NCBI GenBank assembly: GCA_024654625.1
Contig: JANLHB010000039.1
Location: 1 to 53,835, forward strand
Reading direction: 5' to 3'
Length of the DNA: 53,835 bases
Origin: Patescibacteria group bacterium
Lineage (GTDB): Bacteria > Patescibacteriota > Minisyncoccia > GCA-002772825
Under the pieces are notes generated by a model. That model was given only the letters and a program-made list of their open reading frames with translations. It was not told where the DNA came from and made no database searches. Shown piece after piece: positions 9,604 to 50,844 of the stretch. Position 1 is the first letter of the stretch. Every line of letters begins with the position of its first letter. The position numbers and the translations under genes are program-made.

Positions 9604-10257
9604 ATGAGGGAATTTACTCCAGCTAGAGGTGAAATATATCATTGTTTTAATCGTGGCACAGAGAAACGAAAAATTTTTCTTTCTAAAAAAGATTATGAAA
9701 GATTTATTGTAAATCTAATACTTTTTAATACAGAAAATACACCGAATAGAAATATCTCTCGTTATAGCCTGGAAGATGCTTATCAGAACATCCCCAGCGA
9801 CCCCCTTGTAAAAATTCATGCTTTTTCACTTTTGCCTAATCATTTTCATTTAATTTTAGAACAGGTTGCAAGCAATGGAATAGCTAGGTTTATGCAAAAA
9901 ATAGAAATGGGTTATGCTCATTATTTCAATAAATTGTATTCAAGAAATGGAAATTTATTTCAAGGTGCTTATAAGATAAAGCACATAGATGATGATTCCT
10001 ATCGATTATATATTTCTTTGTATGTTCATCTAAACGCCCTTGATCTTTTGGGTTCAGAGAAAAATTGGAAAGAAAAGGGGATTAAAAATAAGAATAATGC
10101 TATTAATTTTTTAAGAAATTATAAATGGTCAAGTTTGAGAGAATATTTAGGAGAAGATTCTTTGCCGTTTGTGAGTCGCGATATTTTCGATGAGATTTAT
10201 AGTTCTCCGAAAGAATGGGAAGTTGCTATGAAAGAATGGGCTTCAGGCGAATTTTAG
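9604..10257 (+). CDS. REP-associated tyrosine transposase (RAYT), IS200/IS605-like Y1 HuH transposase
   Basis: HuH motif LLPNHFHLIL and downstream catalytic Tyr region (GYAHYFNKLY); ~200 aa; flanked by inverted GTGCAC palindromes. Confidence 0.8.
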   Translation: MREFTPARGEIYHCFNRGTEKRKIFLSKKDYERFIVNLILFNTENTPNRNISRYSLEDAYQNIPSDPLVKIHAFSLLPNHFHLILEQVASNGIARFMQKIEMGYAHYFNKLYSRNGNLFQGAYKIKHIDDDSYRLYISLYVHLNALDLLGSEKNWKEKGIKNKNNAINFLRNYKWSSLREYLGEDSLPFVSRDIFDEIYSSPKEWEVAMKEWASGEF

Positions 10258-11614: not shown

Positions 11615-12820
11615 ATGGCAAGGAAAAAAATATATTTAAGCGGAGGATTTTTTTTGTTAGGTTTCGGCCTGCTTTTTTTTGCCTCACCGTATTTTTTCAA
11701 GCCGATTAAATATGTTTCAAATAATATAGCTTCGGTAGAAAAGGATGAGATCAATCTGGCGGATAGCGATATAAATGATCCTGACTGGCGCACTGAAGCC
11801 CCTTTTGTTGCTACTCATCTTGATACGCCTGATGCGGTGAAGGGCGTATATATGACAGCTTGCGTGGCTGGTACGCCGAGTATCCGAAGCAAAATGGTGA
11901 AGCTTGTAGAAGAGACTGAGCTCAATACTATAGTGATAGATATAAAAGATTATACAGGCACGATTTCATTTAAGGCAGGTGATCCTGTTCTCGATGGGTT
12001 TGGCGGAGGAGGTTGCCATGTCAGCGATATGAAAGAGTTTGTGGATTCTCTCCACAAAAAAGGAATTTATGTAGTAGGGAGAGTCACTGTTTTTCAAGAT
12101 CCGTATTACGCAAAACTCCACCCAAGTTTGGCTGTTAAAAAAGAGAGTGATAAATCTCTTTTGTGGAAAGACAGAAAGGGGATAAGTTATATAGATCCAG
12201 GCGCTAAAGATATGTGGGATTATATTGTAACCTTAAGCAAGGAGTCATACGAAGCCGGCTTTGATGAGCTTAATTTTGACTATATACGTTTTCCGTCAGA
12301 TGGGAACATGGATGATATGTATTATCCTTTTAGTGAGGAGGAAGTTTTGGCTGATATAAATTTTGGTAAGGCTAAGGTCTTGAGAGAGTTCTTTATCTAT
12401 CTCCACGAAAATCTGAAAGATACCGGTGTGGTATTATCAGCGGATCTTTTTGGAATGACAACAACTAATAGAGATGATTTAAATATCGGGCAGATATTGG
12501 AATATGCCGAACCATATTTTGATTTTATAGCACCGATGGTGTATCCGTCGCATTACCCAAAAGGATTTATGGGGTATCAAAATGTGAATCTATATCCGTA
12601 TGAGATAGTGAAGTTCTCTATGGATGAAGCGGTAAAAAGGCTTATCACTGCATCGTCAACTCCGCTTAAGCTAAGACCATGGCTTCAAGACAATGATTAT
12701 CCTGTTCATTATACCCCGGAGATGGTCCGCGCGCAGAAACAGGCCGTCTATGACACCGGATTGACTAGCTGGATGTTATGGGACGCAGGTAATACATATA
12801 CTCGTGAAGCTTTGGATTGA
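11615..12820 (+). CDS. Exported or membrane-anchored TIM-barrel glycoside-hydrolase-like protein (DUF4015/GHL-type)
   Basis: N-terminal TM; NTIVIDIKDYTG...GIYVVGRVTVFQD...GFDELNFDYIRFP pattern recalled from glycoside-hydrolase-like TIM barrels; family assignment from memory only. Confidence 0.45.
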   Translation: MARKKIYLSGGFFLLGFGLLFFASPYFFKPIKYVSNNIASVEKDEINLADSDINDPDWRTEAPFVATHLDTPDAVKGVYMTACVAGTPSIRSKMVKLVEETELNTIVIDIKDYTGTISFKAGDPVLDGFGGGGCHVSDMKEFVDSLHKKGIYVVGRVTVFQDPYYAKLHPSLAVKKESDKSLLWKDRKGISYIDPGAKDMWDYIVTLSKESYEAGFDELNFDYIRFPSDGNMDDMYYPFSEEEVLADINFGKAKVLREFFIYLHENLKDTGVVLSADLFGMTTTNRDDLNIGQILEYAEPYFDFIAPMVYPSHYPKGFMGYQNVNLYPYEIVKFSMDEAVKRLITASSTPLKLRPWLQDNDYPVHYTPEMVRAQKQAVYDTGLTSWMLWDAGNTYTREALD

Positions 12821-12906
12821 GGCGTTTAAATTTATGTCAACGTGGCAGGTTGACATAAAATATTTAATTTTACATGTTCTTGACAGATGTGGTATAATTT
12901 TTCTAA

Positions 12907-14562
12907 ATGAACAATAAAGATATTACTTATTTTGCCGAAGCTAATTTTCGTAATAAACACCAGCGTTTCGGTATAAAGCGCGATGATAGAACAAAGCATG
13001 TTTACGTTATAGGAAAGACCGGTATGGGTAAATCTACCATGCTTGAGAATATGGCGGTGCAGGATATTCAAAACGGCGAGGGAATGGCTTTTATAGATCC
13101 TCACGGAGCGACTGCCGAGCTCCTCTTGGATTATGTGCCGGAGGATCGCATAGATGATGTAATCTATTTTGCTCCGTTTGATACAGAGTATCCTATTTCT
13201 TTTAATGTGCTAGAAGATGTCGGTTACGACAAACGTCACTTGGTGGTGGCGGGTCTTATGAGCACATTTGAGAAGATCTGGGTTGACGCATGGTCTGCCA
13301 GAATGTCATACATCTTAAGCAACACGCTTCTCGCTCTCTTAGAATACCCAAACTCAACTTTGATGAGCATCAACAGAATGCTTGCTGATAAGGAGTATAG
13401 AAAGAAGGTTGTAGATAATATCACAGACCCCACGGTCAAATCATTTTGGGTCGATGAGTTTGCCAAATATACAGACAGATATACCCAGGAAGCGACACCG
13501 GCCATCCAAAACAAGATAGGTCAATTTACTTCAAATCCTTTGATAAGAAATATTATCGGACAGCCTAGGACCAGTTTTGATTTACGCAAATTGATGGACG
13601 AGAAAAAGATTATTATTATCAATCTTTCAAAAGGGCGGTTAGGTGAGCAGAATGCGAATCTCTTAGGTAGTATGCTTATCACTAAAATCTATCTTGCCGC
13701 TATGTCTCGCGCCGACGTATCAAGCGAAGAACTTAAAAAGCTTCCTCAATTTTATTTTTATGTTGATGAGTTTCAATCTTTCGCCAATAAATCTTTCGCT
13801 GATATATTATCCGAAGCGAGGAAGTATAAATTGAATTTAACTATTGCGCATCAATATATAGAGCAAATGTCAGAAGAGGTTAACGCTGCGGTGTTCGGAA
13901 ACGTGGGAACGATGATAGTATTTCGTGTCGGAGCTTATGATGCCGATATTTTAGAGAAAGAGTTTGCGCCTGAGTTTATAGCTCAAGATATCGTAAATCT
14001 CGGATTTACTCAGATCTATCTAAGGTTGATGATAAATGGAGTGGGGTCAAGACCTTTTTCCGCTTCCACCTTACCGCCGATTGCGAAGCTGGAGCATTCT
14101 TTTAAAGATAAGATAATTGAAGCTTCTAGGAAGAATTATGCTATTCCGAGAAAGACAGTGGAGGATATGATAAAGAGATGGCACGAAGATGGCGCTCCGA
14201 CTGTCTTGAGTAAACCTGGTTCTATAATGGCTAAGAAAGATGACAAACCTTTTGAGAAAAAGCCAGTATTCGCTTTAAGCGCAGATAAGCGCATCGAGCA
14301 AAGGCTGGATAACAAAAAGCCATATGAAAGAAAGTACGTTAAGCCAACCATCTCTCTAAATGCTTTGAAAGAAAAATCCGGAGAGAATGTTCTCATTAAC
14401 AATAAGAATAGAAGTCATGATCAAAGGAGCCATCCTCAAAAGGCGAGTGCCAATTTAAGCGCCTTAAGAGAAGCCTTAAATGAAATTGCGGCAACCGGCG
14501 AGCCTAAAGAAAAAAATAAAAGCGGAATATTAAAACCTGGACAAAAAATAAAATTTGATTAG
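12907..14562 (+). CDS. FtsK/HerA-superfamily P-loop ATPase, TraD/VirD4 coupling-protein-like, with Lys-rich disordered C-terminal tail
   Basis: Walker A VIGKTGMGKST, Walker B FYFYVDEFQSF, sensor Gln (TIAHQ); no N-terminal TM helices. Confidence 0.5.
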   Translation: MNNKDITYFAEANFRNKHQRFGIKRDDRTKHVYVIGKTGMGKSTMLENMAVQDIQNGEGMAFIDPHGATAELLLDYVPEDRIDDVIYFAPFDTEYPISFNVLEDVGYDKRHLVVAGLMSTFEKIWVDAWSARMSYILSNTLLALLEYPNSTLMSINRMLADKEYRKKVVDNITDPTVKSFWVDEFAKYTDRYTQEATPAIQNKIGQFTSNPLIRNIIGQPRTSFDLRKLMDEKKIIIINLSKGRLGEQNANLLGSMLITKIYLAAMSRADVSSEELKKLPQFYFYVDEFQSFANKSFADILSEARKYKLNLTIAHQYIEQMSEEVNAAVFGNVGTMIVFRVGAYDADILEKEFAPEFIAQDIVNLGFTQIYLRLMINGVGSRPFSASTLPPIAKLEHSFKDKIIEASRKNYAIPRKTVEDMIKRWHEDGAPTVLSKPGSIMAKKDDKPFEKKPVFALSADKRIEQRLDNKKPYERKYVKPTISLNALKEKSGENVLINNKNRSHDQRSHPQKASANLSALREALNEIAATGEPKEKNKSGILKPGQKIKFD

Positions 14563-15955
14563 TGTGAAAATTTTCTATCTTCTTTTTATTTTATTATTTA
14601 TTTTTATCCCTAAGATAGTTTTGGGAGAGGTAATTATAAATGAAATAATGTATGACTTGAAAGAAGGGTCAGATTCCGGCAGAGAGTGGATTGAGATTAA
14701 AAATATTGGAAATGAAGATATAGATTTAAGCGATTGGAAACTTTATGAAGACAATACTAATCATTCATTGAATCTCTTTGGAAACGGTGTTTCGTTTGTT
14801 CTATCTGGCGGGTATGCTGTCATAGCAGATAACGCAGAAAAGTTTTTAGCGGATTGGCCTGAATTTGGAGGGGTTTTATTTGACAGCTCGTTTTCTTTAA
14901 AAAATGATGGAGAAACTTTAATCATAAGAGATGAAGCTCTGAGTGATATTGATCAGGTTAGTTATTCAAAAGAGCTGGGAGCAAGCGGAGATGGAAATTC
15001 TTTGCAGTTTATAAACGGGAATTGGGAGGCAAAATCTCCGACCACTGGATATGGAAATAGCGAAGCTTCAGTTGTTGAAGAGATTGCCGGAGTGGCCAAA
15101 CCTTCTTCTATTGTTGCTCTGTCTTTTCCTGTTGCTCCTCAAATTTACGCTTTCTCTTCTGGTGATGAAGCAGGCGTTGCTGGAGGGGTGCTTGAGTTTA
15201 AAGGATTGGCTCTGGGTCTTAAAAAAGAACCTCTTTTAAACGCAAGGTTTCTGTGGAATTTTGGCGATGGATATTCAAAGGATGGGAAAAATGTAACCCA
15301 TACTTATAATTACCCCGGTGATTATATCGTGTTTTTAGATGTTTCTTCCGGCGAGTATTCCGCCTCAAGCAGAATGAATGTAAAAATTACTGAGAGTAAT
15401 CTTAAAATCACTGACGTTAGATTTGATTCAAGCGGAGAGTCTATAGTTGAACTTTATAATGATTCTGATCGGGAAATAGACATATCTTATTGGCTGCTTA
15501 GGTCTGGGAATATGCTTTTTACTTTCCCTAAAAATAGCTTTATCGGAGCGGGCAGCAAATTACCGCTCTCTTCTCTGGTGACAAGATTAAATATAGATGA
15601 AAGCAAGAAAGCGGATATTCTTTATCCTAATGGTTCTGTTTTTTATTCATTTGATATTAGGGCTGGATCATCTAAAGGCAATCTGTCTCAGATTTATGAA
15701 AAAGATATTTTAAACTCTGGCACTATTGGTTCAGAAGATGGCGGACTGCGCCAAGCAGTTTCAAGTGATAAAATAACGGAAGAAGTTTTAATTAAAAACG
15801 ACGATATATCATTAAATAAAAAACAAGAGGCGAATGCCGTTTCTTTTTCAAATGAAAGTGGAAAAAGTAATAAATGGATATTTTTTGCAGGAGGGTTTGG
15901 TTTGATCGGCGTTTTAGGAGTTGTATTTGCAAAGCGCATTGGATCAGTTTCTTAA
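14555..15955 (+). CDS. Lamin-tail-domain (LTD) protein with two LTDs, signal peptide and C-terminal TM anchor
   Basis: LTD signatures INEIMYD..G.D.EWIEIKN.G..DIDLSDWKL and a second copy (LKITDVRFD..ESIVELYNDSD.EIDISYWLL); start overlaps the upstream ATPase stop by 8 nt. Confidence 0.7.
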   Translation: MISVKIFYLLFILLFIFIPKIVLGEVIINEIMYDLKEGSDSGREWIEIKNIGNEDIDLSDWKLYEDNTNHSLNLFGNGVSFVLSGGYAVIADNAEKFLADWPEFGGVLFDSSFSLKNDGETLIIRDEALSDIDQVSYSKELGASGDGNSLQFINGNWEAKSPTTGYGNSEASVVEEIAGVAKPSSIVALSFPVAPQIYAFSSGDEAGVAGGVLEFKGLALGLKKEPLLNARFLWNFGDGYSKDGKNVTHTYNYPGDYIVFLDVSSGEYSASSRMNVKITESNLKITDVRFDSSGESIVELYNDSDREIDISYWLLRSGNMLFTFPKNSFIGAGSKLPLSSLVTRLNIDESKKADILYPNGSVFYSFDIRAGSSKGNLSQIYEKDILNSGTIGSEDGGLRQAVSSDKITEEVLIKNDDISLNKKQEANAVSFSNESGKSNKWIFFAGGFGLIGVLGVVFAKRIGSVS

Positions 15956-16170
15956 TGTAACCTTTTAGACTTTATCCACAACTTGGTATTATATTTGATT
16001 CAAATAGAAGTTATTATATATATAACTTTAAAAAAGGTCGGTTTTTTGAAGTTATCCCGCCTTTGGCGGGTAAATATGCATATTTGTCCGCTCTATTTTT
16101 TTCAACTTAATTGTGAATTTAATAGGCCGGCGGAATAACTTTATTAATTAAAACGAAATAAAATATAATT

Positions 16171-16928: not shown

Positions 16929-17767
16929 TTGACTTATAAACCGGCATATATATAATAGTATGGTAGTTATGAGAATACTGATAAATAAAAGTTTCAACAA
17001 GTGGGCAAGGTGATTCCTTCTGTTTATGCTATAACCTTTGCCGCTTGAATAAGCGGCTTTTATTTTTCCGGAACGATAGAACTTTTAAAATTGAATAGCA
17101 GGTAAAAATTAGAATAAATATATAAAAAGTTTATAAATTTCCTAGTAGGAAATAAGAGCATATGGTGGATGCCTTGACTTAAAGAGGCTATGAAGGACGT
17201 GGCTAAGCTACGATAAGCTTCGGGGAGGTGCCAAGCGACCTTTGATCCGGAGATGTCCGAATGGGGAAACCCGTCAGAGTAAAGCTCTGTCAGGCGCCGT
17301 TAAAAGCGCCAGCTAACCCGCTGAAGTGAAACATCTCAGTAAGCGGTGGAAAAGAGAAAAATTTTTATTCCCTAAGTAGCGGCGAGCGAAAAGGGAATAG
17401 CCCAAACCAGTTTTTAACTTTGTTATGAATTGGGGTTGTAAGGCTTTAACGTTCTACTTCTTTTTTAATATTAAATTGCGGAGTAGAAGGAGAGTCATAA
17501 ATTATTTTGTTAGTTGAGTTTGCTGGAAAGCAAAACCATAGAGGGTGATAGTCCCGTAAGCGAAAACAAAATAACTCTTTTGTTATTGACCTTGAGTACC
17601 TCAGGACACGAATGGCCTGGGGGAAGCAGGCAGAACTAACTGCCAAGGCTAAATACTCTTTAAGATCGATAGTGAACAAGTACCGTGAGGGAAAGGCGAA
17701 AAGAACCCCGGTGAGGGGAGTGAAATAGAACCTGAAACCATATGCTTACAAGGAGTCGGAGCGGGTA

Positions 17768-17933
17768 TCACATTGCATGTGATTTGAAAATTCGAAATTC
17801 GAATATCGAAATTCGAAACAATTATTAAAATATAAATTTTAATGTTTAAAACATTAAAATTTATAAAATTAGAATTTGTTTTGTATTTCGGATTTGTGAT
17901 TTCGTGCTTTCGCAATCATGCGTAGCGTGATGC
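17768..17933 (+). other. Intervening sequence (IVS) copy 1 in 23S rRNA, helix-25 region
   Basis: 166-nt AT-rich palindromic element replacing the helix-25 tip; near-identical to the copy at 19181-19346. Confidence 0.7.
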
Positions 17934-19180
17934 CCGTGACGGCGTGCCTATTGAAGAATGAGTCAGCGAGTTTATGCGTATTGCTTAACTAATCCCATAA
18001 GGGAGGAGTTTTAGGGAAACCGAGTGTTAATAGCGCGAACACAGCTTTTTAGTTTTGTTGTCTTGATCAATTCATTGATCTTGATACAGAACTAAGGAGC
18101 TGTATGTAGTACGTATAAGACCCGAAGCCAAGTGAGCTTGCCATGGGCAGGGTGAATTTTGCAGAAATGCAAAAGGAGGCCCGAACCGGTTGGTCGTTCA
18201 ATTCCATCGGATGACCTGTGGTAAGGAGTGAAAAGCTAATCGAACTTGGTAATAGCTGGTTTTCTCCGAAATAGCTTTTGGGCTAGCGTCTTAGTTACCC
18301 TCTGGGGGTAGAGATACTGGAAGGTGTAAACAGGGAGCAATCTCGTTATACCTACCAAACTCCGAATACCAGAGACTAAATCTAAGGCAGTTAGACTATG
18401 GGGGCTAAGCTCCATTAGTCAAAAGGGAAACAGCCCAGATCTCAATCTAAGGTCCCTAAATCTTTGCTAAGTGCACTTAAGGTGGTGAAATTTCTCTAAC
18501 AACGAGGAGGTTGGCTTAGAAGCAGCCATCCTTTAAAGAAAGCGTAACAGCTCACTCGTCAAGAGATATCGCGCCGCAAATACTCGGGGCTAAGCAAGGT
18601 ACCGAAGGTGAGGATTTCAATGTTTACATTGGAATGGTAGGAGAATATTCTGAACTGCGTTGAAGCCGAAGGGGTGACCCACGGTGGAGCGTTTAGAAGA
18701 AAGAATGCTGACACAAGTAACCACAATCCCGGTGAGAGAACCGGGACGCCGAAAGACTAAGGGTTCCTGGGCAATGGTGATCATCCCAGGGTTAGTCGGA
18801 CCTAAGGCGATGACGAAAGTCGGAGTCGATGGACACACGGTTAATATTCCGTGACCCCTTTATTTTTCGATGGAGTGACGGAGGAAATAAATGAGAGCAT
18901 ATTATTGGATTTATGTTTCTTATCTTAAGGAGCGTCTCTTAGGTAAATCCGGGAGACTGATTTAATTCAAGTTCCGAAGATAGGAGAAACTTCTTCCCAC
19001 GGGTTGAGGGATTCTCATGAAGAGCCTTCCTAGAAAAACTTCTAAGATTAAAAATAGAGGGACCGTACCGTAAACCAACACAGGTAGTCAGGTCGAGAAG
19101 ACCAAGGCGAACGGGTGAGATATCTCCAAGGAACTCGGCAAAAAAGCGGCCGTAACTTCGGAATAAGGCCTCCCAGCGCA

Positions 19181-19346
19181 TCACATTGCATGTGATTTGA
19201 AAATTCGAAATTTGAATATTGAAATTCGAAACAATTATTAAAATATAAATTCTAATGTTTTAAACATTAGAATTTATAAAATTAGAATTTGTTTTGTATT
19301 TCGGATTTGTGATTTCGTGCTTTCGCAATCATGCGTAGCGTGATGC
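19181..19346 (+). other. IVS copy 2 in 23S rRNA, around E. coli position 1710-1750, near-identical to copy 1
   Basis: Direct repeat of the 17768-17933 element with ~4 substitutions. Confidence 0.7.
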
Positions 19347-19573
19347 GTTGGGCGCAGCGAAAGTATCCCTGGCGACTGTTTATCAAAAACACAGCTCCCT
19401 GCGAACTCGTAAGAGGATGTATAGGGGGTGACGCCTGACCAATGCGAGAAGGTCAAATACGACTGGTGCTTCGCACCAGAATTTTCAAGTAGCAATCTTC
19501 AATTTTCAAAATTTGGAAATTGTAAATTGAAAATTGGAAATTCTAGCGCGGAGTGCTGAGTTGTATAAGCCCT

Positions 19574-19613
<40 letters not shown>

Positions 19614-20196
19614 TAATTCCTTGTCTGGTAAGTTCAGACGTGCACGAATGGCGTAACGACTGGGGAACTGTCTCGGAGATATGCCCGGTGAAAATGCAAT
19701 GGGGGTGAAGATGCCCTCTACCTGCAGTTAGACGAAAAGACCCCGGAAGCTTTACTATATCTTGATATTGAATTTAGATTTTGGATGCGTAGCATAGGTG
19801 GGAGGCTTTGAAGTTGTCCTTTTGGGGACAATGGAGCCGTCAGTGAAATACCACTCTTTCTTGATCTAAATTCTAACCTGTACGGCAAAAACGTACGGAA
19901 ACAGTATCTGGTGGGTAGTTTAAGTGGGGCGCTTGCCTCCTAAAGAGTAACGGAGGCGCTTATTAAGGTTAGCTAGGCGCGGATGGAAATCGTGCCGATA
20001 GTGTAATGGCAAAAGCTAGCTTGACTGCGAGCGGGACATCGCAAGCAGAGTGGAAACACGAACATAGTGAACCGACCATCCGCATTAGATGCGGTGGGAG
20101 ATTAACGGATAAAAGCTACTCCGGGGATAACAGGCTAGTTCCGCCCAAGAGTTCATATCGACGGCGGAGTTCGGCACCTCGATGTCGGCTCAACTT

Positions 20197-20245
<49 letters not shown>

Positions 20246-20272
20246 AAGTTACGCGAGCTGGGTTCAAACCGT

Positions 20273-20764
20273 CCAGATGCTAAAATCTATTTTTTGGCTT
20301 TTGAGCGGTTTGAATCAAGTTCACGACATTGAGAAGTAGTGTTATAAATTTTTTCGTTTATGAAAAAAGATAGAATCAATCAAATCACGGCGGCCTCTTT
20401 TTAGTAATAATTTGAGGACCAGTCAACTTATATCGGTGAAACCTCTTTCATAAAGAGGCAATACCGAGGGAAGTATTATTGTAGGTTTTGTAAGGGGAGA
20501 CGATGTAGCTTAAAAATCAGAATTTTGCTACGTGATTCGAACACGAGCACTTTCTGATACGGTAAAGCACCGATTGAAAACCGGAAGAATGTGGCAGCCA
20601 CCACCTTCGTCACCCCAGAAAAAATAAGGTCAATCAAAATTGATTGACCCCCTTACAAAACCTATAATAAGTACACCCGTAGAGACTAAATGTTGACTAT
20701 CCAAATTTGATAAAAATTTGGATAAAGTTATAGTCCAATGCATTTGGCGACAAATGATATCATG
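20273..20764 (+). mobile_element. ORF-less group I-type intron in the 23S rRNA peptidyl-transferase region (E. coli position ~2593)
   Basis: 492-nt insertion between ...AACCGU and CGUGAGACAG; the 5' exon ends in U and the insert ends in G, as for group I splice sites. Confidence 0.55.
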
Positions 20765-20818
20765 CGTGAGACAGGTTGGTCTCCTATCTACTGCAGGCGT
20801 TTTGATTCTTGAAGAGAT

Positions 20819-20849
<31 letters not shown>

Positions 20850-21090
20850 TAACCTCTGGTGTACCAGCTGTCCTGCCAAGGGCACTGCTGGGTAGCTATG
20901 TTGGGAAAGGATAACCTCTGAAAGCATCTAAGAGGGAAGCCAACTCTAAGATTAAGAATCTTTAAGACTCCTGAGAGATGATCAGGTTGATAGGCTCTAA
21001 GTGTAAGCGCAGTAATGCGTTTAGCTGAGGAGTACTAATAGTTGTTTTCCTACTAGGAAATTTGTAAATTTATATATATTAAAAAAGAAC

Positions 21091-23225: not shown

Positions 23226-26200
23226 ATGGATTCGTCTTTTACTTTTTTGAAAAAGGTTAGACAATTTGTCAGACATACAATAGATGCGAATGAAATGAGA
23301 AAGTTGGCTTTTTTAATAAGTGCCGGCTTTTTTATTTCATTAGCCTTATTTGTCCAGGGTGTAAATGCGGATATAACGACGAGTTTATTAGGTTATTGGA
23401 AATTTGATGAGACGACAGGGGTAACTGCTGTTGATAATAGTGGCGGCGGGAATACGGGGACATTATTAAATTCTCCGGTATGGACGACCGGCAAGGTGTC
23501 GGGAGGGCTTTCTTTTGATGGAGTGGACGATGCTGTTCAAATAGCTGATGGAGGCGCCTTCAATTTTGGATCCGGTGATTTTACTGTGTCAGCATGGTTT
23601 AAGACGTCATCAATCCAAACTAAAAATATCATTTCAAAATACATTGGTTCAGGCAGATACGCATTCAATCTCCAGGTTGGCGGCAGCGGTTTGATATCAT
23701 TTATGTCGTCAGACGGAGCTTCAAAACAAATAGGGGCGGCGGATACTCCTTATGAGGACGGAGCTTGGCATCATATTGTCGGCGTTAAGGACTCTGCTCA
23801 ATTGACTTTATATATTGATAATGTACTTAAAGGCAGTACCCCTTTTGGCGGCACCGTTGAAAATTCTAATTATAAAACATATATAGGGGCCAGAGGTTAC
23901 AATAATTTACCGCAGGATAATTATTTCCCCGGATTATTGGATGATGTTCGCATATATAATCGCGCTTTGACTCAATCAGATGTGGCGACGTTGTATGACT
24001 TCGGCGGTTATCAATGCAATGACGATACGGACAATGATTTAGACGGGTTAACGGATTATCCAGATGATTTAGGATGTTCATCTTACCAAGACGATAATGA
24101 AGTTAATTCAGTGTCGCCATCGGGCGACACTACCCCTCCTGTAATCTCAAGTATTCAAGCTGTAAACATTTTTCCAACAACGGCAGATATAACATTCACA
24201 ACCGATGACTTGGCTCATACTGAAATAAATTACGCCGCAGATTCATATTACACATCAAATTCAACTTACAACAATACAGATGTAGATTGGAATAAAGTAA
24301 CGGCGCATTCCATGACTTTAACAGGCCTTACTCCAAATACCGTTTACCATTATCAAATAAAATCTCAGAATAATTCCTCTTTAACCACTACCACATATAC
24401 GGATTATATATTTACAACTTTATCAGATAACACAGCGTCGCCGGTTATACCAGCCGACCCTTCAAAACAGACAGTTGCGCCAGGTACGCCCCTGCCTATT
24501 ATTCCGGGAGGAAAAGGTTTTGGGATAAACACTTATGCCGGAAGCGGCAGGAATCTTGCTGTCCCAAGTACTTCTGTCTATAAAGTGACAACTCTTAATC
24601 CTTCCGGCGCAGGATCACTGAAGGAGTGTGTGGATGCGACAGGGCCAAGGGTGTGCGTTTTTGAAATATCGGGAGTGATAGACATCTCAAGCCTCGGGGC
24701 GTGGGGGTTAAGAGTTAAAAATCCATATATAACGATAGCGGGGCAGACTGCGCCGTCGCCGGGAATAATGCTAAGAGGCGCACCTTTTATAATAGAGACT
24801 CATGATGTTTTAGTTCAGCATATAAGAATAAGGCCAGGCGATACTTTAGGATCAGGATGTGTTATCGGACCGGATAATTGCGATGCCGTGGCCGTAGTGG
24901 ATTTATATAATGAGAATGATGTCTATAATGTGGTCGTTGATCATGCCTCGCTTAGCTGGTCAATGGATGAGATTTTTTCAACATGGTATCCGAATGTTCG
25001 TGATATTACGTTAAGCAATTCAATTTTAAGCGAAGCCTTGCATAACTCTCTTCATCCAAAAGGACCGCATGGCTATGGGTTGATCGTAGGGATTGATTCA
25101 TCTAATATATCAATACTTGGAAATCTTGTAGCTCACAACTATCAGAGGAATCCTCTTCTTAGTATGGGGTCCGAGACGATTGTTGCTAATAACGTTTTTT
25201 ATAACGCCGGCCTGATGAAGACTCACGCTGATGCAAGATCAGGGCTTAAATCAAGTATCGTCGGCAATGTGTATCTTAAAGGCGCGGATTATTATTCGTC
25301 CGTGGCGCCAATTTACATTTATAATTCAGAATCAAGCGCTTCTGTGTATATTTCGGATAATGACGCGCCAGGGGCCACTTCAGATCCTTGGTCAATAGTG
25401 GCCGTAAAACCATCTGATATAATAAACCATGCTTCTATTCCGCCTGTTTGGGTGCCTAGCCTTAGCGTCCTTCCGAGTAATATTGTGAAAGACAATGTGC
25501 TTTTAAATGTAGGCGCACGTCCAGCAGATAGGGATCCAGTAGATATCCGTATCATAAATGAAGTGAAAAATAATACCGGTAATATCATAAACTGTGTTAA
25601 TTCGGATGGATCTGTTCGTTGCCAGAAAAATGCAGGAGGTTGGCCCGTCCTTCTTAAGAATTATCGCAAGTTGATAATTCCTAATAATCCTAATATGGAT
25701 GATGATGGTGACGGGTACACGAATTTGGAAGAATGGCTTCATTCATATGCTACGCAAGTGGAAGGAGTTTCTGTTTTGTATCAATGTTCAGATGGTATGG
25801 ATAATGATAGCGACGGTTTAACAGATTACCCTAACGATCCGGGTTGCGCTTCTGTTTCAGACAATGATGAATACAATGTTCCCGCCGACATCACGCCACC
25901 CGTTATCTCAAACATCTCTGCTTCAGTCACCGCCAACTCTGCCAATATCACTTACGCTACCAATGAACCGGGAGACACCCAGATAGACTACGGTCTCTCC
26001 ACTTCCTATGGTACCGCCACTAATTTAAACACCACCTCTGTTACTTCTCACAGCCAGACTCTAAACAATCTCTCGCCTTCCACCCTCTATCACTACCGAG
26101 TCAAATCCAAAGATACTTCAGGTAATACGTCCATTTCAACCGATAGAATTTTCACTACCGGAGGAATTACTGATGTTACGCCACCTTCAGCCCCAACCAA

Positions 26201-27488
26201 TCTCTCCACCTCTTTCGTCAATCATACTTCTATCACTCTAAACTGGACATCGCCCGGAGACGATGGCTCAGTCGGCACCGCTTTATCATATGACTTAAGA
26301 TACTCTACCTCGCCAATTACTGAATCATCCACGCCAGGCGGGACAAGCTGGTCATCCGCCACCCAAGCAGTAGGCGAACCAACTCCAAAGATTGCCGGCT
26401 CACCAGAGTTCTACACCTCAACCGGTCTAACCGCTTCCACCACCTACTATTTTGCCGTCAAAGCCATAGACGATGCTGGCAACACTTCCATTGTCTCTAA
26501 CATCGCTACAGACACTACTCATTCCTTAACTCTTTCCGTTAATCTTTCGGCTAATAATGTCACCGATCCTTCTTCCGGCAATACTACAGACAGCGGTAAT
26601 ACTTCAACCAGTGGCGGCGGCGGAGGTTCTGTTACTGTATCTTCCGGCGGCGGCGGCGGCGGAGGTGGTGGCGGTAACTATTACGACACCACTCCGCCGG
26701 AAGTTCCTAAGAGTTTCACTTCTCAATCAGCCGAAAATCAGGCCACTCTCGCATGGCAGAACCCACCAGATACAGACTTTGTCCGTGTTGCCATCGTTCG
26801 TTCCACTGCTCCGATTCCAAATCTTTCCACTTTCACTCAAGCTAAGTCACAAGGCACAGTCATCTACGAAGGCACAGATAATGAATACACAGATACCAAT
26901 CTTTTAAACAACACTCCTTACTATTACGCTATCTATTCTTACGACAAGAAGCCAAATTATTCTAATCCGTTCATCCTTCAAGCTGTTCCAAAACAAGGCC
27001 AGACTTCCATAACTGCTCAAACAACTCCTGCCACAATATCTGCCGCTCAATCATCAATTGCCCTTCCAACCCTTACCGGTCCATTTGCATTAGGTTATGA
27101 AAACGATCAAGTCAAACTCCTCCAACAATACTTAGCCAATCCGCCAGCTGGTGGAAAAGATATATATCCGGAAGGGATAACCTCAGGTTATTATGGCGCA
27201 TTAACTCAAAGAGCGGTGGAACGCTTTCAATGCAAATACCAAAACATCTGCTCAGGTTCTCCTTCCTCAACAGGCTATGGCCTAGCAGGCCCAAGCACAA
27301 GATTAAAGATTATGGCAATCCATGGTTCAACTGTTACATCAAGTGGTGGAACTGTGGCTTCAGCTTCCGAAGACGCTTTGAAAGCTCAACTAATGAAACA
27401 AATTGAAGAACTCCAAGCTATCTTACAACAACTCTTGGAACAGTTAGTTCAAGCGTTGGCGCTTCAGTTGGAGGGACTTACTCAGTAG
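23226..27488 (+). CDS. Large secreted multi-domain surface protein
   Basis: Signal or TM at N-terminus; LamG/ConA-like domain; two Cys-DNDxDGLTDYP modules; several fibronectin type III domains; pectate-lyase-like beta-helix; Gly-rich linker; C-terminal peptidoglycan-binding-like domain and coiled coil. Confidence 0.8.
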   Translation: MDSSFTFLKKVRQFVRHTIDANEMRKLAFLISAGFFISLALFVQGVNADITTSLLGYWKFDETTGVTAVDNSGGGNTGTLLNSPVWTTGKVSGGLSFDGVDDAVQIADGGAFNFGSGDFTVSAWFKTSSIQTKNIISKYIGSGRYAFNLQVGGSGLISFMSSDGASKQIGAADTPYEDGAWHHIVGVKDSAQLTLYIDNVLKGSTPFGGTVENSNYKTYIGARGYNNLPQDNYFPGLLDDVRIYNRALTQSDVATLYDFGGYQCNDDTDNDLDGLTDYPDDLGCSSYQDDNEVNSVSPSGDTTPPVISSIQAVNIFPTTADITFTTDDLAHTEINYAADSYYTSNSTYNNTDVDWNKVTAHSMTLTGLTPNTVYHYQIKSQNNSSLTTTTYTDYIFTTLSDNTASPVIPADPSKQTVAPGTPLPIIPGGKGFGINTYAGSGRNLAVPSTSVYKVTTLNPSGAGSLKECVDATGPRVCVFEISGVIDISSLGAWGLRVKNPYITIAGQTAPSPGIMLRGAPFIIETHDVLVQHIRIRPGDTLGSGCVIGPDNCDAVAVVDLYNENDVYNVVVDHASLSWSMDEIFSTWYPNVRDITLSNSILSEALHNSLHPKGPHGYGLIVGIDSSNISILGNLVAHNYQRNPLLSMGSETIVANNVFYNAGLMKTHADARSGLKSSIVGNVYLKGADYYSSVAPIYIYNSESSASVYISDNDAPGATSDPWSIVAVKPSDIINHASIPPVWVPSLSVLPSNIVKDNVLLNVGARPADRDPVDIRIINEVKNNTGNIINCVNSDGSVRCQKNAGGWPVLLKNYRKLIIPNNPNMDDDGDGYTNLEEWLHSYATQVEGVSVLYQCSDGMDNDSDGLTDYPNDPGCASVSDNDEYNVPADITPPVISNISASVTANSANITYATNEPGDTQIDYGLSTSYGTATNLNTTSVTSHSQTLNNLSPSTLYHYRVKSKDTSGNTSISTDRIFTTGGITDVTPPSAPTNLSTSFVNHTSITLNWTSPGDDGSVGTALSYDLRYSTSPITESSTPGGTSWSSATQAVGEPTPKIAGSPEFYTSTGLTASTTYYFAVKAIDDAGNTSIVSNIATDTTHSLTLSVNLSANNVTDPSSGNTTDSGNTSTSGGGGGSVTVSSGGGGGGGGGGNYYDTTPPEVPKSFTSQSAENQATLAWQNPPDTDFVRVAIVRSTAPIPNLSTFTQAKSQGTVIYEGTDNEYTDTNLLNNTPYYYAIYSYDKKPNYSNPFILQAVPKQGQTSITAQTTPATISAAQSSIALPTLTGPFALGYENDQVKLLQQYLANPPAGGKDIYPEGITSGYYGALTQRAVERFQCKYQNICSGSPSSTGYGLAGPSTRLKIMAIHGSTVTSSGGTVASASEDALKAQLMKQIEELQAILQQLLEQLVQALALQLEGLTQ

Positions 27489-33545: not shown

Positions 33546-35032
33546 TATATAATGTATTAGAGCCTATAAGAAGTATAGGTCGTCCTTTAATAATTTAAAA
33601 ATCCACTAAATAACAAGTCCAAAAAAACAATGATAGTCCGCCTAGGGCGGATTAATTCGGGCAATCAGCTTTCAGCTGAGCCCTCATTGAATATTATTCT
33701 TTCTTTTGTTCCGTTCTATTCAACCGAACATTCTTCGGAATGTTTTAGGTTTTTTTAAGAGTTTGATCCTAGTCCCGATTTTACTCGCATCTTTGATGCG
33801 ATTGTAAAATCGAGGATTCTCGAAAAATATATCCCGATTTCATCGGGAGTTATTTTTCGGAACTCAGGATATGTGATTTATTCATATATTTTGTTTGAGA
33901 ATCAATACTTCTTTTTTAAGAGTTTGATCCTAGCTCAGGATGAACGCTGGCGGCGTGGATAAGGCATGCAAGTCAAACGGGCACCTTCGGGTGCCAGTGG
34001 CAGACGAGGTAGTAACACGTAGGAACGTGCCTCTAAGTTGGGCATAATCCGCCGAAAGGCGGACTAATTCCCAATAGTCCCTTCGGGGTAAAGTCCGCTT
34101 CGGCGGACGCTTAGAGATCGGCCTGCGAGCTATCAGCTTGTTGGTAAGGTAATGGCTTACCAAGGCGATGACGGCTAGGGGAGGTGAGAGCCTGACCCCC
34201 ACCGATGGCACTGAGACACGGGCCATACACCTACGGGTGGCCGCAGTCGAGAATATTCCACAATGGGCGAAAGCCTGATGGAGCGACGCCGCGTGCAGGA
34301 TGAAGTCTTTCGGGATGTAAACTGCTTTTATGAGGGAGAAATTACGATGATGTTACCTCAAGAATAAGGGGCTGCTAAACTCGTGCCAGCAGCAGCGGTA
34401 ATACGAGTGCCCCGAGCGTTATCCGAAATTATTGGGCGTAAAGGGTTTGTAGGCGGCTTTGTTAGTCTCTTGTTAAAGCTTCCGGCTTAACCGGAAAAGT
34501 GCAAGAGAAACGGCAAATCTAGAGGATGCGAGAGGTCTATGGAACTCATGGTGTAGGGGTGAAATCCGTTGATATCATGGGGAACACCAAAAGCGAAGGC
34601 AATAGACTGGCGCACTCCTGACGCTGAAAAACGAAAGCGTGGGTAGCGAATGGGATTAGATACCCCAGTAGTCCACGCCCTAAACGATCTTCTCTAGCTT
34701 TTTGGAGTATCGACCCTCCGGGAGGCGAAGCTAACGCGTTAAGAGAAGCGCCTGGGAAGTACGGTCGCAAGACTAAAACTCAAAGGAATAGACGGGGACT
34801 TGCACAAGCGGTGGATCATGCGGTTTAATTCGATGATAAACGAAGAACCTTACCAGGGTTTGAAACCCAAGCGAAGTCCGCCAGAAACGGCGGACGTCTC
34901 ACAAGGACGGTTGGGCAGGTGATGCATGGCTGTCGTCAGTTCGTGGTTTGAATTGTTCCCTTAAGTGGGGTAACGAACGCAACCCCCGTTGCCTGTTATA
35001 TGTTTCAGGCGAGACTGCCCCTCACCAAACTC

Positions 35033-35122
35033 GGAAGAGTTTGGAAATCCGAAGCACGAAGCACGAAAAACGAAACAAAAAGTTTCGAATTTCGAATTTC
35101 GGATTTAACCAATCTTATTGGT
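35033..35122 (+). other. Palindromic IVS in 16S (around E. coli position 1130-1140)
   Basis: ccctcaccaaac...[cgaa/ttcg-rich insert]...ggtttggtgaggg extends a helix by ~90 nt. Confidence 0.6.
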
Positions 35123-35361
35123 TTGGTGAGGGGAGGAAGGCGGGGATGACGCCAAGTCAGCATGTCCCTTTGACACCCTGGGCTACACGCATGATACAAT
35201 GGTCGGTACAATGGGTCGCTAAGCGGTAACGCGGAGCCAATCCCATCAAAGCCGATCCCAGTCCGGATTGAGGTCTGCAACTCGACCTCATGAAGTTGGA
35301 ATCGCTAGTAATCGCAGGTCAGCTATACTGCGGTGAATACGTTCTCAAGTCTTGTACTCAC

Positions 35362-36206
35362 AATAAAAGCGCGCAGCAGCGCATAATTCTAAATGGTTAA
35401 AATCCATTCCCCTGATTCGTCGTCGGGGCGTAGCAGAAAGATAGCCTTTTACCGCGAGGTAAATGGTGGAGGATCTGAAAGCAAAAGATAGTCCAACATA
35501 AAAATGAGCGTATTGATTTACGAATGGGTGGTGAGCGTAGAGAAAATACACAAAAAACTCAGTTGGAATGTCTGGAAAAGAAATATGCGTGACCTGTGGA
35601 GATCTGACGTTGTTATCAGCCTTTAAGGCTGATATAATTAAACTTACGCAGCGTCAGAAGTCAGCTGAGTCATAGTATCCGCCTTAGGCGGAGAAGGCAC
35701 TCACTCTATGCAAAAGATTAACCCAGATTATATTGTAGGTTTGGTGGACGGCGAAGGCAGTTTTACTGTCTATGTACGCAATCCATCAAAAATTTCTCTT
35801 ACTCGAAGAGTTAAGATAGAACCAAAATTCTATTTGAAACTAATTGAGAAAGATAAAAGAATTTTGTATCAATTAAAAGATTTTTTTGGTTGTGGAAGTG
35901 TGTATTTTCAAAAAGATACACGACCTAATCATCAAAACTGTTATAGATACGAAGTTTATAATAGAAATGATATCCGATCGATCATAATTCCATTTTTTCA
36001 GAAATATAAATTGAAGTTTCCTTCAAAAAAGAAGGACTTTGATATATTCTGTAAAATGTTTTCTTTGATTGAGAAGGGTGAACACCTCAAAGAATCTGGT
36101 TTGAAGAAGTTGTATACCTTGAAACAACATATGCATTAGAGCTCGCCGTATACGGGAAATCCGTCCGTACGGTGGGAACATAAATTCGTAGTTTAACGAA
36201 GATAAT
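35362..36206 (+). mobile_element. Intron (probably group I) in the 16S decoding-centre region (between E. coli positions 1399 and 1400), carrying a homing endonuclease ORF
   Basis: 845-nt insertion between GUACUCAC and CGCCCGUCAC, with an internal LAGLIDADG ORF. Confidence 0.7.
35708..36139 (+). CDS. Single-motif LAGLIDADG homing endonuclease, intron-encoded
   Basis: GLVDGEGSF motif at the N-terminus, 143 aa, located inside the 16S rRNA gene. Confidence 0.8.
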   Translation: MQKINPDYIVGLVDGEGSFTVYVRNPSKISLTRRVKIEPKFYLKLIEKDKRILYQLKDFFGCGSVYFQKDTRPNHQNCYRYEVYNRNDIRSIIIPFFQKYKLKFPSKKKDFDIFCKMFSLIEKGEHLKESGLKKLYTLKQHMH

Positions 36207-49426: not shown

Positions 49427-49873
49427 ATGAAATTTTCTTTACCTTCAATTTTAAGTTTAATGATACTTCTTTTTGTATTTTCGCTAACCTTTATTCCCGT
49501 TTTTGTGTCAGCTTGGGCGCCGGGTCAATCTATCGTACCTTGTGGTTTAGGCGGAGGTACTTCCTGTAAGGCCTGCCACATATTTCCTCTTGCTAATAAT
49601 GTTATAAGTTTTATATTGCTTGGACTTGCGATGCCTTTTGCTGTTGTAATGATCCTCTGGGGAGGTATTCTTATGGTGACTGGCGCCGGTAACCCGGGGC
49701 AACTGGAGAAAGGAAAAAACTATCTAACATGGGCAGTGATAGGGCTTGTGGTTGCATTTGCAGGCTGGATAATTGTTGATACGATAATAAAAGCGCTTAC
49801 TGTGAAAACTAACTGGGGGGCGAGTGCTTCGTGGAGTTTTGGCCCTTGGAATGAGATACCAGCTTGTAAATAA
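49427..49873 (+). CDS. Small secreted 2-TM protein, VirB2/TrbC-pilin-like (paralog 1 of 4)
   Basis: Signal peptide, CGLGGGTSCKAC, TM1 - loop NPGQLEKGKNYLT - TM2. Confidence 0.5.
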   Translation: MKFSLPSILSLMILLFVFSLTFIPVFVSAWAPGQSIVPCGLGGGTSCKACHIFPLANNVISFILLGLAMPFAVVMILWGGILMVTGAGNPGQLEKGKNYLTWAVIGLVVAFAGWIIVDTIIKALTVKTNWGASASWSFGPWNEIPACK

Positions 49874-49903
49874 AAGAGTAATATAAATAAAAAAATAATA
49901 AAT

Positions 49904-50332
49904 ATGAATATACTAAAAACAAAAAAATCTCTAACTGGATTTATCCACAAAATTAAAAAAACATTATTGCCCAAGCAGATTTTTTGGTCTATTATTAGTT
50001 TAGCGTTATTTTTACCATTTTTTGTTTATTCGGATGAGGTAGGGGTAACAACAGGAAGTGGTGGAAGCAGTTCATTGAAGAATCCATTAGCAGTCGATTC
50101 TGTCTCAGCGCTTGTGAAAGCTGTTGCCGAGATTGTTATGAAAATTGGCTTTATGGTTGCGGTAGTCTTCATCATATATTCCGGTTTCTTGTATGTGTCA
50201 GCGAGGGGGAGTGAAGAGAAGTTAAAGAAGGCACACTCCACTTTCACGTGGACGATTATAGGTACAGCTGTTATCTTGGGTGCATGGACCATCGCAATGG
50301 TGATAGAGTCAACGGTTAAGTCGTTAAAATAA
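49904..50332 (+). CDS. Small 2-TM protein, VirB2/TrbC-pilin-like (paralog 2)
   Basis: Signal peptide, TM1 - loop ARGSEEKLKKAHSTF - TM2 (W.IIG..). Confidence 0.5.
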   Translation: MNILKTKKSLTGFIHKIKKTLLPKQIFWSIISLALFLPFFVYSDEVGVTTGSGGSSSLKNPLAVDSVSALVKAVAEIVMKIGFMVAVVFIIYSGFLYVSARGSEEKLKKAHSTFTWTIIGTAVILGAWTIAMVIESTVKSLK

Positions 50333-50418
50333 TAAATAAACAGGTCGATGTTTTCCGCCAAGAATGGGTTCACCTCGCCAAGGTGGGGTAAAATTAGAAA
50401 TTAAAAATAAAAAAATAT

Positions 50419-50757: not shown

Positions 50758-50783
50758 GAAATTAAATAATTTTATAACAAAAA

Positions 50784-50814
50784 GAAAATCCCTCTTTTTT
50801 AAAGAGGGATTTTC
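50784..50814 (+). terminator. Rho-independent terminator between paralogs 3 and 4
   Basis: gaaaatccctctttttt/aaagagggattttc. Confidence 0.8.
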
Positions 50815-50844
50815 TTTTTATGTAGATTAGTATAAAATATAAAT

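Follow-up and report, generated by a model that had tools for sequence, protein, structure and literature searches.

A soluble coupling-protein-like ATPase and an adjoining lamin-tail-domain surface protein in a Patescibacteria chromosomal fragment

The gene pair and its products

In a 53,835-nucleotide stretch of contig JANLHB010000039.1 (assembly GCA_024654625.1, Patescibacteria group bacterium; 'the window' refers to this whole stretch), two adjoining genes encode a P-loop ATPase resembling the type IV coupling proteins (T4CPs) of type IV secretion systems (T4SSs) and a surface protein with two lamin-tail domains (LTDs). The window is a chromosomal fragment from the Candidate Phyla Radiation (CPR)/Patescibacteria, of Paceibacteria type. 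We regard it as highly probable that the unit consists of a soluble, truncated, vertically inherited T4CP paralogue that shares a transcript with an LTD-PKD-LTD surface protein exported by Sec and anchored in the membrane. The pair was compared across a total of 160 loci, comprising 80 species-level genome loci picked by ATPase similarity (all from one class-level group, Paceibacteria-type) and 80 metagenomic loci of LTD orthologues (30–60% identical), and residue conservation of the ATPase was scored across 55 homologues. The features of the pair are as follows (aa, amino acids; AF2, AlphaFold2; pLDDT, predicted local distance difference test; TM, transmembrane).

12869–12898, forward strand: promoter-like site TTTACA-18-(TG)TATAAT, inferred from an 11/12 match with an extended −10
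12907–14562, forward strand: gene for a soluble VirD4/TraD/TrwB-type (T4CP-like) P-loop ATPase, 551 aa, ATG start, assigned by Pfam, fold search and homologues
13012–13038, forward strand: Walker A, GKTGMGKST, residues 36–44, with G36, K37, T38, G39, G41, K42 and S43 invariant
13225–13599, forward strand: predicted all-alpha insert, approximately residues 107–231, equivalent to the T4CP all-alpha domain (AF2 helices, pLDDT ~88–94)
13750–13773, forward strand: Walker B region, FYFYVDEF, residues 282–289, with F282, Y283, V286, D287, E288 and F289 invariant
14197–14559, forward strand: disordered basic C-terminal tail of the ATPase, residues 431–551 (pLDDT <50)
14555–15955, forward strand: gene for a 466-aa surface protein (LTD-PKD-LTD) that has a Sec signal, a stalk and a C-terminal TM anchor, starting at TTG 14555 or GTG 14564
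14624–14968, forward strand: first LTD, residues 24–138 (best Pfam LTD stretch)
15155–15400, forward strand: PKD domain, approximately residues 201–282 (Pfam PKD/PKD_4, 40 bits; resembles collagenase PKD domains in the PDB)
15401–15679, forward strand: second LTD, approximately residues 283–375, limits approximate (second Pfam LTD stretch; conserved alignment block)
15872–15940, forward strand: C-terminal TM anchor, approximately residues 440–462 (hydropathy 2.16; present in all 14 clustered orthologues)
16065–16092, forward strand: terminator-like hairpin after the LTD gene, 12-bp stem then TTTTTTT (pattern match only)

The initial annotation, made from the letters alone, had placed the ATPase in the FtsK/HerA/TraD superfamily, and both Pfam profiles and fold assign it more narrowly to the T4CP lineage. 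Matches above the gathering threshold were TrwB_AAD_bind (39.4 bits, residues 25–341), T4SS-DNA_transf (33.9), TraG-D_C (25.0) and DUF87/HerA (23.9), and TraD/VirD4-like NCBIfam matches were all sub-threshold. A sequence search of the PDB recovered only the Walker A region of TrwB (E = 1e-3), so that a comparison of folds was needed. The AF2 model (pLDDT 72.5 overall, ~80–95 in the core and <50 in the tail) contains a P-loop domain, and Foldseek against the PDB ranked Cagbeta, TrwB and DotL on top (probability 1.0; TM-score ~0.6 normalised to TrwB), with HerA and VirB4 structures below them and all at 12–15% identity. The modelled helices include what appears to be a T4CP-type all-alpha domain within the nucleotide-binding domain, and neither profile nor fold pointed to a KAP NTPase or another non-translocase family. 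The Walker A, Walker B and glutamine motifs first recognised by eye proved invariant or nearly so among the 55 homologues, with Q290 and Q316 as the glutamines. No TM segment was found in the ATPase (maximum 19-residue Kyte–Doolittle mean, 1.32), in agreement with the initial annotation, and a hydrophobic segment was without trace in 76 of the 80 relatives, the remaining four probably being over-extended open reading frame (ORF) calls. The tail is lysine-rich, as had also been noted (21 Lys and a net charge of +12 in the last 121 residues), and is conserved at only 14%, save for two short motifs, [VI]SL..LK near residue 484 and L[RK].AL near residue 520, whose L484, L520 and L524 are kept family-wide.

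Much the same traits (solubility, a basic tail and very high conservation) would suit a HerA-type anti-phage defence ATPase or an FtsK/SftA-like housekeeping chromosome translocase; HerA structures did appear in the fold search, and PADLOC returned mad8 at 51 bits and HerA at up to 35 bits. We consider either identity very improbable indeed: HerA and VirB4 score below T4CPs in both the profile and the fold comparisons, no FtsK_SpoIIIE profile matched, the PADLOC matches are generic to P-loop proteins, no partner defence genes lie nearby, and the neighbouring genes are of housekeeping or envelope type. Defence genes are usually patchy and fast-evolving rather than near-universal, unlike this near-universal and slow-evolving ATPase. 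An anti-phage defence system was rejected on the PADLOC result, and replacement of FtsK was set aside for want of the profile match and kept as a low-probability rival; FtsK is mentioned in literature on TM7x. CedD, of archaeal DNA import, was likewise discarded: the NCBIfam match spans the Walker A region only, and CedD is VirB4/HerA-like and not a T4CP.

A word-indexed search returned more than 8000 homologues of the ATPase, the top 120 of them at 62–93% identity and, where named, all from Patescibacteria or Parcubacteria; an exhaustive search (E ≤ 1e-3) returned 22,329 clusters at 50% identity. Thousands of homologues for both the ATPase and the LTD gene indicate that these are real genes rather than chance ORFs.

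In the second product, Pfam LTD (PF00932) matched over two stretches (85.7 bits versus a cut-off of 34.3), and the N terminus is a hydrophobic, signal-like helix. The secreted two-LTD protein with a C-terminal anchor described at first is borne out by Pfam and hydropathy, with the addition of a PKD domain between the LTDs that had been missed. Pfam identified neither a catalytic nor a known DNA-binding domain in this protein, which has a single TM helix; many orthologues carry Ser/Thr-rich inter-domain linkers. Most orthologues end, after the TM helix, in an acidic cytoplasmic motif of approximately (E/A)(A/S)D(E/D)Y(E/T)I(I/V/L)(E/D)-COOH (loci L019, L031, L036, L051, L060, L064, L068, L074 and L077). 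This motif could dock a cytoplasmic partner, for example the basic tail of the ATPase.

Both ORFs were located as first described, and the 8-nt overlap between the ATPase stop (TAG, 14560–14562) and the TTG at 14555 can be read in the sequence; use of the in-frame GTG at 14564 (MKIFYLL...) would instead leave a 1-nt gap, so that the genes are tightly coupled under either start. The translational coupling proposed earlier agrees with the placement of a promoter-like site before the ATPase and of the next terminator-like hairpin beyond the LTD gene (all promoter and terminator calls here being consensus pattern matches only), and the ATPase and LTD genes probably form a two-gene transcription unit ending at the 16065–16092 hairpin. 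Because the promoter-like site stops 8 nt 5′ of the ATPase ATG, the mRNA may be leaderless or very short-leadered. Across 15 genomes, the ATPase-to-LTD spacing had a median of −4 nt (range −20 to +32).

Conservation and ancestry of the ATPase

Over its core (residues 1 to ~430), the ATPase showed a median pairwise identity of ~71% among the 80 species-level genomes, compared in the same locus pairs with 59% for MraY, 59% for RsmI, 50.5% for DUF4015 (an upstream neighbour described below), 36% for the LTD protein and 29% for a MurD-like ligase, a comparison that is somewhat biased by the selection of loci via ATPase similarity. In locus pairs that share both genes of the unit, median identities were 73.5% for the ATPase and 36% for the LTD protein, whose fast evolution is expected of an exposed surface protein.

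The best plasmid match of the ATPase core, and its closest non-CPR relative, was a 395-aa orphan on an alphaproteobacterial plasmid, from Sulfitobacter (NZ_CP081110.1, 8986–10173; locus L161; 39% identity), with transposases and recombinases on its flanks, which hints that the short form spread horizontally beyond the CPR. Of the plasmid relatives whose context is characterised, the closest were 'DUF87 domain' proteins on Bacillus plasmids (for example, NZ_OX419581.1), ~29% identical to the ATPase over 90% of the core; like it, they lack a TM domain, and they adjoin a replication-relaxation (relaxase-type) gene as well as TcpD/TcpE/VirB4-like genes. These neighbours mark the Bacillus proteins as true conjugative T4CPs, and their relatedness indicates that the window ATPase descends from coupling proteins of monoderm conjugation systems.

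Among the best 150 of the 22,329 cluster representatives, 118 had a complete core, and two architectures predominated: 72 were short, like the window ATPase, and 42 had an N-terminal extension of at least 200 aa. A TM-like segment was present in 22 of the 42 long forms, DUF8128 was recorded in four of the five whose contigs were looked up, and one long form adjoins a 1,710-aa TrbL_3/VirB6-like gene. The window ATPase is an N-terminally truncated, soluble paralogue of the longer T4CP form with TM helix and DUF8128: it is without the membrane helix and DUF8128 N-domain of the long paralogues and without the ~370-aa N-region of the Bacillus relative. In a rough neighbour-joining tree, it fell within a large block composed entirely of short forms, and some short and long forms interleaved elsewhere; clean monophyly of the two forms was accordingly dropped, and we claim two architectures, not two clades. 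Essentially no literature was found on DUF8128 or DUF4015. Directly 5′ of the long T4CP with TM helix and DUF8128, two of the three informative loci carry a Sigma70_r4 (or HARE-HTH) protein (L164, 542–1672; L168, 156–1232), which is possibly a dedicated regulator of the long form.

Conservation of the pairing depends on the side from which it is viewed. The LTD gene directly follows the ATPase gene (+1) in 19 of the 74 ATPase loci with enough downstream sequence (~26%) and stands at +2 in one more, mostly within one broad ATPase subclade that includes the window (two loci lie elsewhere). From the other side, the ATPase is directly upstream on the same strand in 48 of the 60 LTD orthologues whose upstream sequence extends 1.2 kb or more (tblastn; ~80%), a ratio approximately unchanged once four near-duplicate pairs were removed; by gene calls, the ATPase is upstream in 39/52, and the commonest downstream neighbour of the LTD gene, GT4 (a glycosyltransferase), in 18/53. 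These figures indicate a pairing that is tighter than background synteny, yet asymmetric. Relatives thus keep the gene pair, as the initial annotation had implied; the LTD protein is nonetheless too lineage-restricted to be a general partner of the ATPase and, from its distribution, looks like a lineage-specific accessory rather than an obligatory partner. A search for co-adaptation gave nothing: ATPases with an adjoining LTD gene and those lacking one are told apart by no position of the alignment.

It could be that the ATPase, LTD and glycan genes are functionally uncoupled and lie together merely through inherited order in compact CPR genomes. CPR genomes are dense, and short spacers and overlaps are common in them; the compared genomes are all Paceibacteria-type relatives, most LTD pairings fall in a single broad subclade of ATPases, and the ATPase and LTD protein show no co-adaptation signal. 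Yet LTD orthologues at only 30–45% identity keep the ATPase upstream in 39/52 loci, against 18/53 for their commonest downstream neighbour, the overlapping or near-abutting arrangement persists, and the link to glycan genes (49/52 loci, see below) holds despite neighbours as diverged as the MurD-like ligase, at ~29% identity. We therefore think a lack of functional coupling clearly unlikely.

Gene neighbourhoods and possible functions

Upstream of the pair, the window carries the following features.

11615–12820, forward strand: gene for DUF4015 (PF13200), an exported or membrane-anchored TIM-barrel glycoside-hydrolase-like protein (Pfam E = 2.9e-89)
12831–12859, forward strand: terminator-like hairpin after the DUF4015 gene, 11-bp stem and A/T-rich tail (pattern match only)

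This is the exported, TIM-barrel hydrolase-like neighbour that had been noted upstream. It has a hydrophobic N-terminal helix (residues 5–28), and its AF2 model (pLDDT 88) matched first 4s1a, the only solved DUF4015 structure and itself uncharacterised, and then the GH153 domains of PgaB/BpsB (E ~1e-12, TM-score ~0.65). A role as the VirB1-like peptidoglycan hydrolase of a T4SS with dispersed genes was not adopted, since PgaB/BpsB came out ahead in the fold comparison and SleL, a spore-cortex enzyme, ranked lower; given the fusion of DUF4015 to YkyA in Firmicutes, a cell-wall substrate is conceivable. A DUF4015 gene lies within 3 kb 5′ of the ATPase, on the same strand, in 43 of the 58 species loci (median spacer, 99 nt). 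In the window, terminator- and promoter-like signals stand between the two genes, and the DUF4015 gene is probably a separate transcription unit there. Two metagenome-assembled genomes, CAZDPS01 (L011 and L061) and JAUPVY01 (L058 and L066), each contain two different DUF4015–ATPase–GT4 cassettes with ATPases in different subclades, reflecting either cassette duplication or bins that mix two related genomes.

Downstream of the LTD gene, the window continues with a protein bearing the MscS-type conserved TM helix in two repeats (the TM_helix protein of the initial annotation) and then 23S rRNA, and no glycan genes follow. The conserved context in relatives, which lay outside the view of that annotation, consists of exopolysaccharide and glycan genes: the first gene after the ATPase is GT4 in 28/74 loci, LTD in 19/74 and Wzy_C-TPR in 7/74, with a median ATPase-to-GT4 spacer of 32 nt and 1–21 nt to Wzy_C-TPR, and in 49 of the 52 species loci the five genes 3′ of the ATPase include one or more glycan genes. 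Pfam-confirmed downstream families across the 80 genome loci were GT4 arrays, GT2, NAD-epimerase, GtrA, Wzy_C+TPR and PMT_2; those upstream were DUF4015, RsmI and the MurD-like ligase, with an MraY-like cluster recognised by sequence inspection.

This context raises the main rival to the reading that we favour below, namely exaptation, in which a T4CP paralogue would energise or organise the assembly or display of surface glycoconjugates, the LTD-PKD-LTD protein among them, without a T4SS and in partnership with GT4, GT2, GtrA, Wzy_C-type and PMT_2 proteins and the upstream PgaB-like DUF4015 hydrolase. It would fit the frequency and short spacing of glycan genes behind the ATPase, the recurrence of DUF4015 with its PgaB/BpsB-like fold, the housekeeping-like conservation of the ATPase and the Ser/Thr-rich linkers of LTD orthologues, as well as the excess of genomes with T4CPs over those with VirB4 in a published survey, whose authors themselves suggest exaptation (PMC12102498). 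Set against this, the LTD protein has an ordinary signal peptide, the window DUF4015 gene is split from the ATPase by terminator- and promoter-like signals with no glycan genes following, and the 80 genomes belong to one class-level group, in which inherited gene order may inflate the association. We know of no precedent for a T4CP of the FtsK/HerA superfamily acting on glycans or on Sec-exported proteins. On balance, exaptation of this kind appears possible but somewhat unlikely, and a broader proposal, that the short T4CP, near-universal in Paceibacteria, has left the T4SS entirely and become a motor or organiser of surface-glycoconjugate or adhesin assembly, slightly more unlikely.

T4SS genes are themselves present in the window, at a distance from the pair.

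49427–51138, forward strand: four tandem, divergent VirB2-like T4SS pilin genes (PF18895 in three ORFs; the fourth, 50845–51138, by phmmer)

The VirB2-like array and its lack of linkage to the ATPase, both part of the initial annotation, were upheld by PF18895 and by the 35-kb distance, and the array proved to hold four copies. A solute-binding protein precedes it and a Band_7/SPFH protein follows on the other strand, with no VirB4 or VirB6 near; no VirB4-like gene was detected in the 160 loci by a single-seed phmmer search of modest sensitivity. That annotation overstated its case in calling the unit uncharacterised, for orphan VirD4-type T4CPs are already known in Patescibacteria (Quiñonero-Coronel et al. 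2025, PMC12102498). As reported in that survey, 5,713 VirD4-type T4CP homologues occur in 2,918 of 3,035 Patescibacteria genomes (96%; ~2 per genome, with which our survey of short and long paralogues agrees), 148 of the 5,713 are near virB4, relaxases number 109 in the 3,035 genomes, and the orphan T4CPs, whose function its authors acknowledge as an open question, may have been exapted. In the only Patescibacteria lineage that is genetically tractable, epibiotic growth depends on the T4SS. No coupling protein can be recognised in the essential T4SS cluster of S. epibionticum, and membrane tethering by a separate small protein, TraI, has been proposed for TraJ, the T4CP of pIP501.

The reading that we favour, tentatively and at something short of an even chance, is that of a coupling-type hexameric ATPase, recruited to the membrane by its tail motifs, that acts in trans with the chromosomal T4SS and is co-expressed with surface or contact-layer genes. 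The ATPase would still function as a hexameric NTPase of the coupling type, recruited via its tail to the inner membrane face by a membrane partner; it would serve the chromosomal, relaxase-less T4SS of Patescibacteria in trans, with the pilins at 49.4–51.1 kb as a part of that system in this genome; and the LTD protein, and in most relatives the products of the glycan genes that follow the ATPase, would build a surface or contact layer in step with its expression. We infer the hexamer, the membrane recruitment, the T4SS link and the adhesin-like role of the LTD protein; there is no indication that the ATPase acts on DNA. Short motifs conserved within an otherwise disordered tail fit a docking role, and action in trans is made plausible by the VirB2-like array in the same genome, by the occurrence of VirB4 in 80% and of T4CPs in 96% of Patescibacteria genomes, the latter usually far from virB4, and by the TraJ/TraI precedent.

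Several observations weigh against this in-trans reading. No T4SS gene was found within 10 kb of the ATPase in the 80 species genomes, within 35 kb of it in the window, where the pilins are 35 kb off, or beside the LTD gene in the 80 metagenomic loci, except for a weak pilin match (L107, E = 6e-4). The acidic C-terminal motif is missing from the window copy of the LTD protein and from its closest relatives, L001 and L003, and, with no distinguishing residues in the ATPase, co-adaptation with the LTD protein is not in evidence. A core that evolves more slowly than MraY or RsmI (71% versus 59%) is unusual among coupling proteins, and an ATPase gene leading into glycan genes in 49/52 loci is at least as suggestive of a role in the envelope. 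In the published survey, T4CP homologues occur in 2,918 genomes versus 2,417 (80%) of the 3,035 for VirB4, and a Saccharibacteria T4CP homologue, which may be the short or the long form, is dispensable where the T4SS is essential (PMC12102498).

The pair was originally put forward as a DNA-translocation module, and in a DNA-handling unit of this kind the LTD protein would capture extracellular DNA and the T4CP-like hexamer would move it across the membrane. Conjugative T4CPs are DNA-dependent motors (TrwB, TraD), and a relaxase-type gene lies beside the closest plasmid relatives; the ATPase tail is basic, slow evolution suits a universal substrate such as DNA, T4SS loci of ABY1-class Patescibacteria co-localise with comF, recG and radA, and LTDs occur in some extracellular nucleases. 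However, the pair, the window and the neighbour families clustered from the 80 genome loci yielded no relaxase, nuclease, ComEC/ComF or VirB6-type channel, and no DNA-processing domain was found in any of the 160 loci. The LTD protein, with its one TM helix, has no catalytic or known DNA-binding domain, its gene is missing at ~74% of ATPase loci, and the conserved neighbours are glycan genes. In ExeM of Shewanella, the one LTD nuclease to have been dissected, DNA degradation proceeds without the LTD, whose role is described as unknown, with membrane targeting or association with sugar-binding domains proposed; the link from LTDs to DNA is indirect, and DNA binding by them is unsupported. Relaxases are almost absent from Patescibacteria, judging by the counts in PMC12102498. 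We hold a DNA-handling function to be decidedly improbable; of the proposed module, the T4CP-type ATPase and the coupled LTD gene are supported and the role in DNA is not, given both the lack of relaxase-, nuclease- or ComEC-type domains and the weak link from LTDs to DNA.

The remainder of the window holds housekeeping genes (FtsZ, FtsA, HisRS, signal peptidase, Pth, S1, FtsW, SHMT, FolD, SecD, SecF and GyrA), seven tRNAs and rRNA genes, with a 3.9-kb 23S and a 5S gene apart from the 16S. The 23S rRNA gene (17142–21058) measures 3,917 nt versus a 2,925-nt model, implying ~1 kb of insertions; it includes a sub-threshold group I intron match (20624–20757, 32 bits, E = 1.6e-5) and no ORF of at least 110 aa. 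The 16S rRNA gene (33912–35408) is on the same strand, with 23S/5S ~13 kb upstream, and is followed (to 36694) by a group II intron D1–D4 match (35623–35699, 37 bits), a LAGLIDADG endonuclease ORF (35708–36139) and tRNA-Ile. A 217-aa IS200/Y1-transposase-like ORF (9604–10257; PF01797, E = 3.5e-7) has counterparts at 33–38% identity in L013 and L056 and at 88% identity in L002 (5655–6299), a locus that also has S1 and DUF4015; the 88% conservation suggests a domesticated or REP-associated Y1 protein rather than an active insertion sequence. Two large surface proteins are predicted, one of 1,420 aa with LamG, FN3-like and peptidoglycan-binding domains (23226–27488) and one of 817 aa with a beta-helix/NosD region, a C39-like peptidase and a FIMAH domain (44130–46583).

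Relation to known systems

The Patescibacteria, which are host-dependent, account for a large part of bacterial diversity. As far as the literature searched goes, it is unpublished that the paralogues fall into short and long forms, that the short form is conserved like a housekeeping protein and stands before LTD or glycan genes, that it has a PgaB-like neighbour and that its linkage to the LTD gene is asymmetric. The split and the lead-in to surface and glycan genes turn the statement that orphan T4CPs may be exapted into two testable alternatives, a T4SS hub acting in trans and an envelope-assembly ATPase, with candidate partners now named (the LTD-PKD-LTD protein with its acidic motif, the DUF4015 hydrolase and the two ATPase tail motifs). 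An envelope role, if true, would broaden the known activities of FtsK/HerA/T4CP motors, and exaptation, if true, would make the ATPase the first descendant of coupling proteins whose function involves neither a T4SS nor nucleic acids, in a core CPR envelope process.

The window ATPase belongs to the same class as the orphan T4CPs of the published survey, which are chromosomal, VirD4-profile positive and rarely near virB4; in the part of that study available here, counts are given without the short/long split, the slow core, the position before LTD, GT4 or Wzy-type genes or the DUF4015 neighbour (PMC12102498). With TrwB of R388, VirD4, TraD, Cagbeta and DotL, it shares the FtsK/HerA-superfamily P-loop domain and the all-alpha insert, but it differs from these classical T4CPs in its low identity to them (12–15%), in having no N-terminal TM helix and no T4SS or relaxase neighbours, and in being chromosomal and vertically inherited at 60–79% identity across genera. 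Classical T4CPs diverge rapidly. Compared with the T4CPs of Bacillus plasmids, neither protein has a TM helix, and by eye the Bacillus N-region looks like the one in the long paralogue of Patescibacteria; the plasmid proteins run to 913 aa, with a ~370-aa N-terminal domain and a conjugation module, whereas the window ATPase has lost both the domain and the context. TraJ of pIP501 offers a precedent for a coupling ATPase localised through a separate membrane protein, but TraJ is plasmid-borne, within its own T4SS operon and with a relaxase partner, and the candidate tether here is the acidic motif of many LTD orthologues, which the window copy lacks.

For the neighbouring products, ExeM is, like the window protein, a secreted or envelope-associated protein with an LTD (Ig-like); ExeM has nuclease domains, whereas in the window protein no catalytic domain accompanies the LTD, PKD and LTD. 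The DUF4015 protein shares with the C-terminal GH153 domain of PgaB/BpsB, which processes poly-beta-1,6-GlcNAc, a TIM-barrel fold, an extracytoplasmic location and adjoining glycosyltransferase genes, but its identity to that domain is ~10–14% and it has no deacetylase domain.

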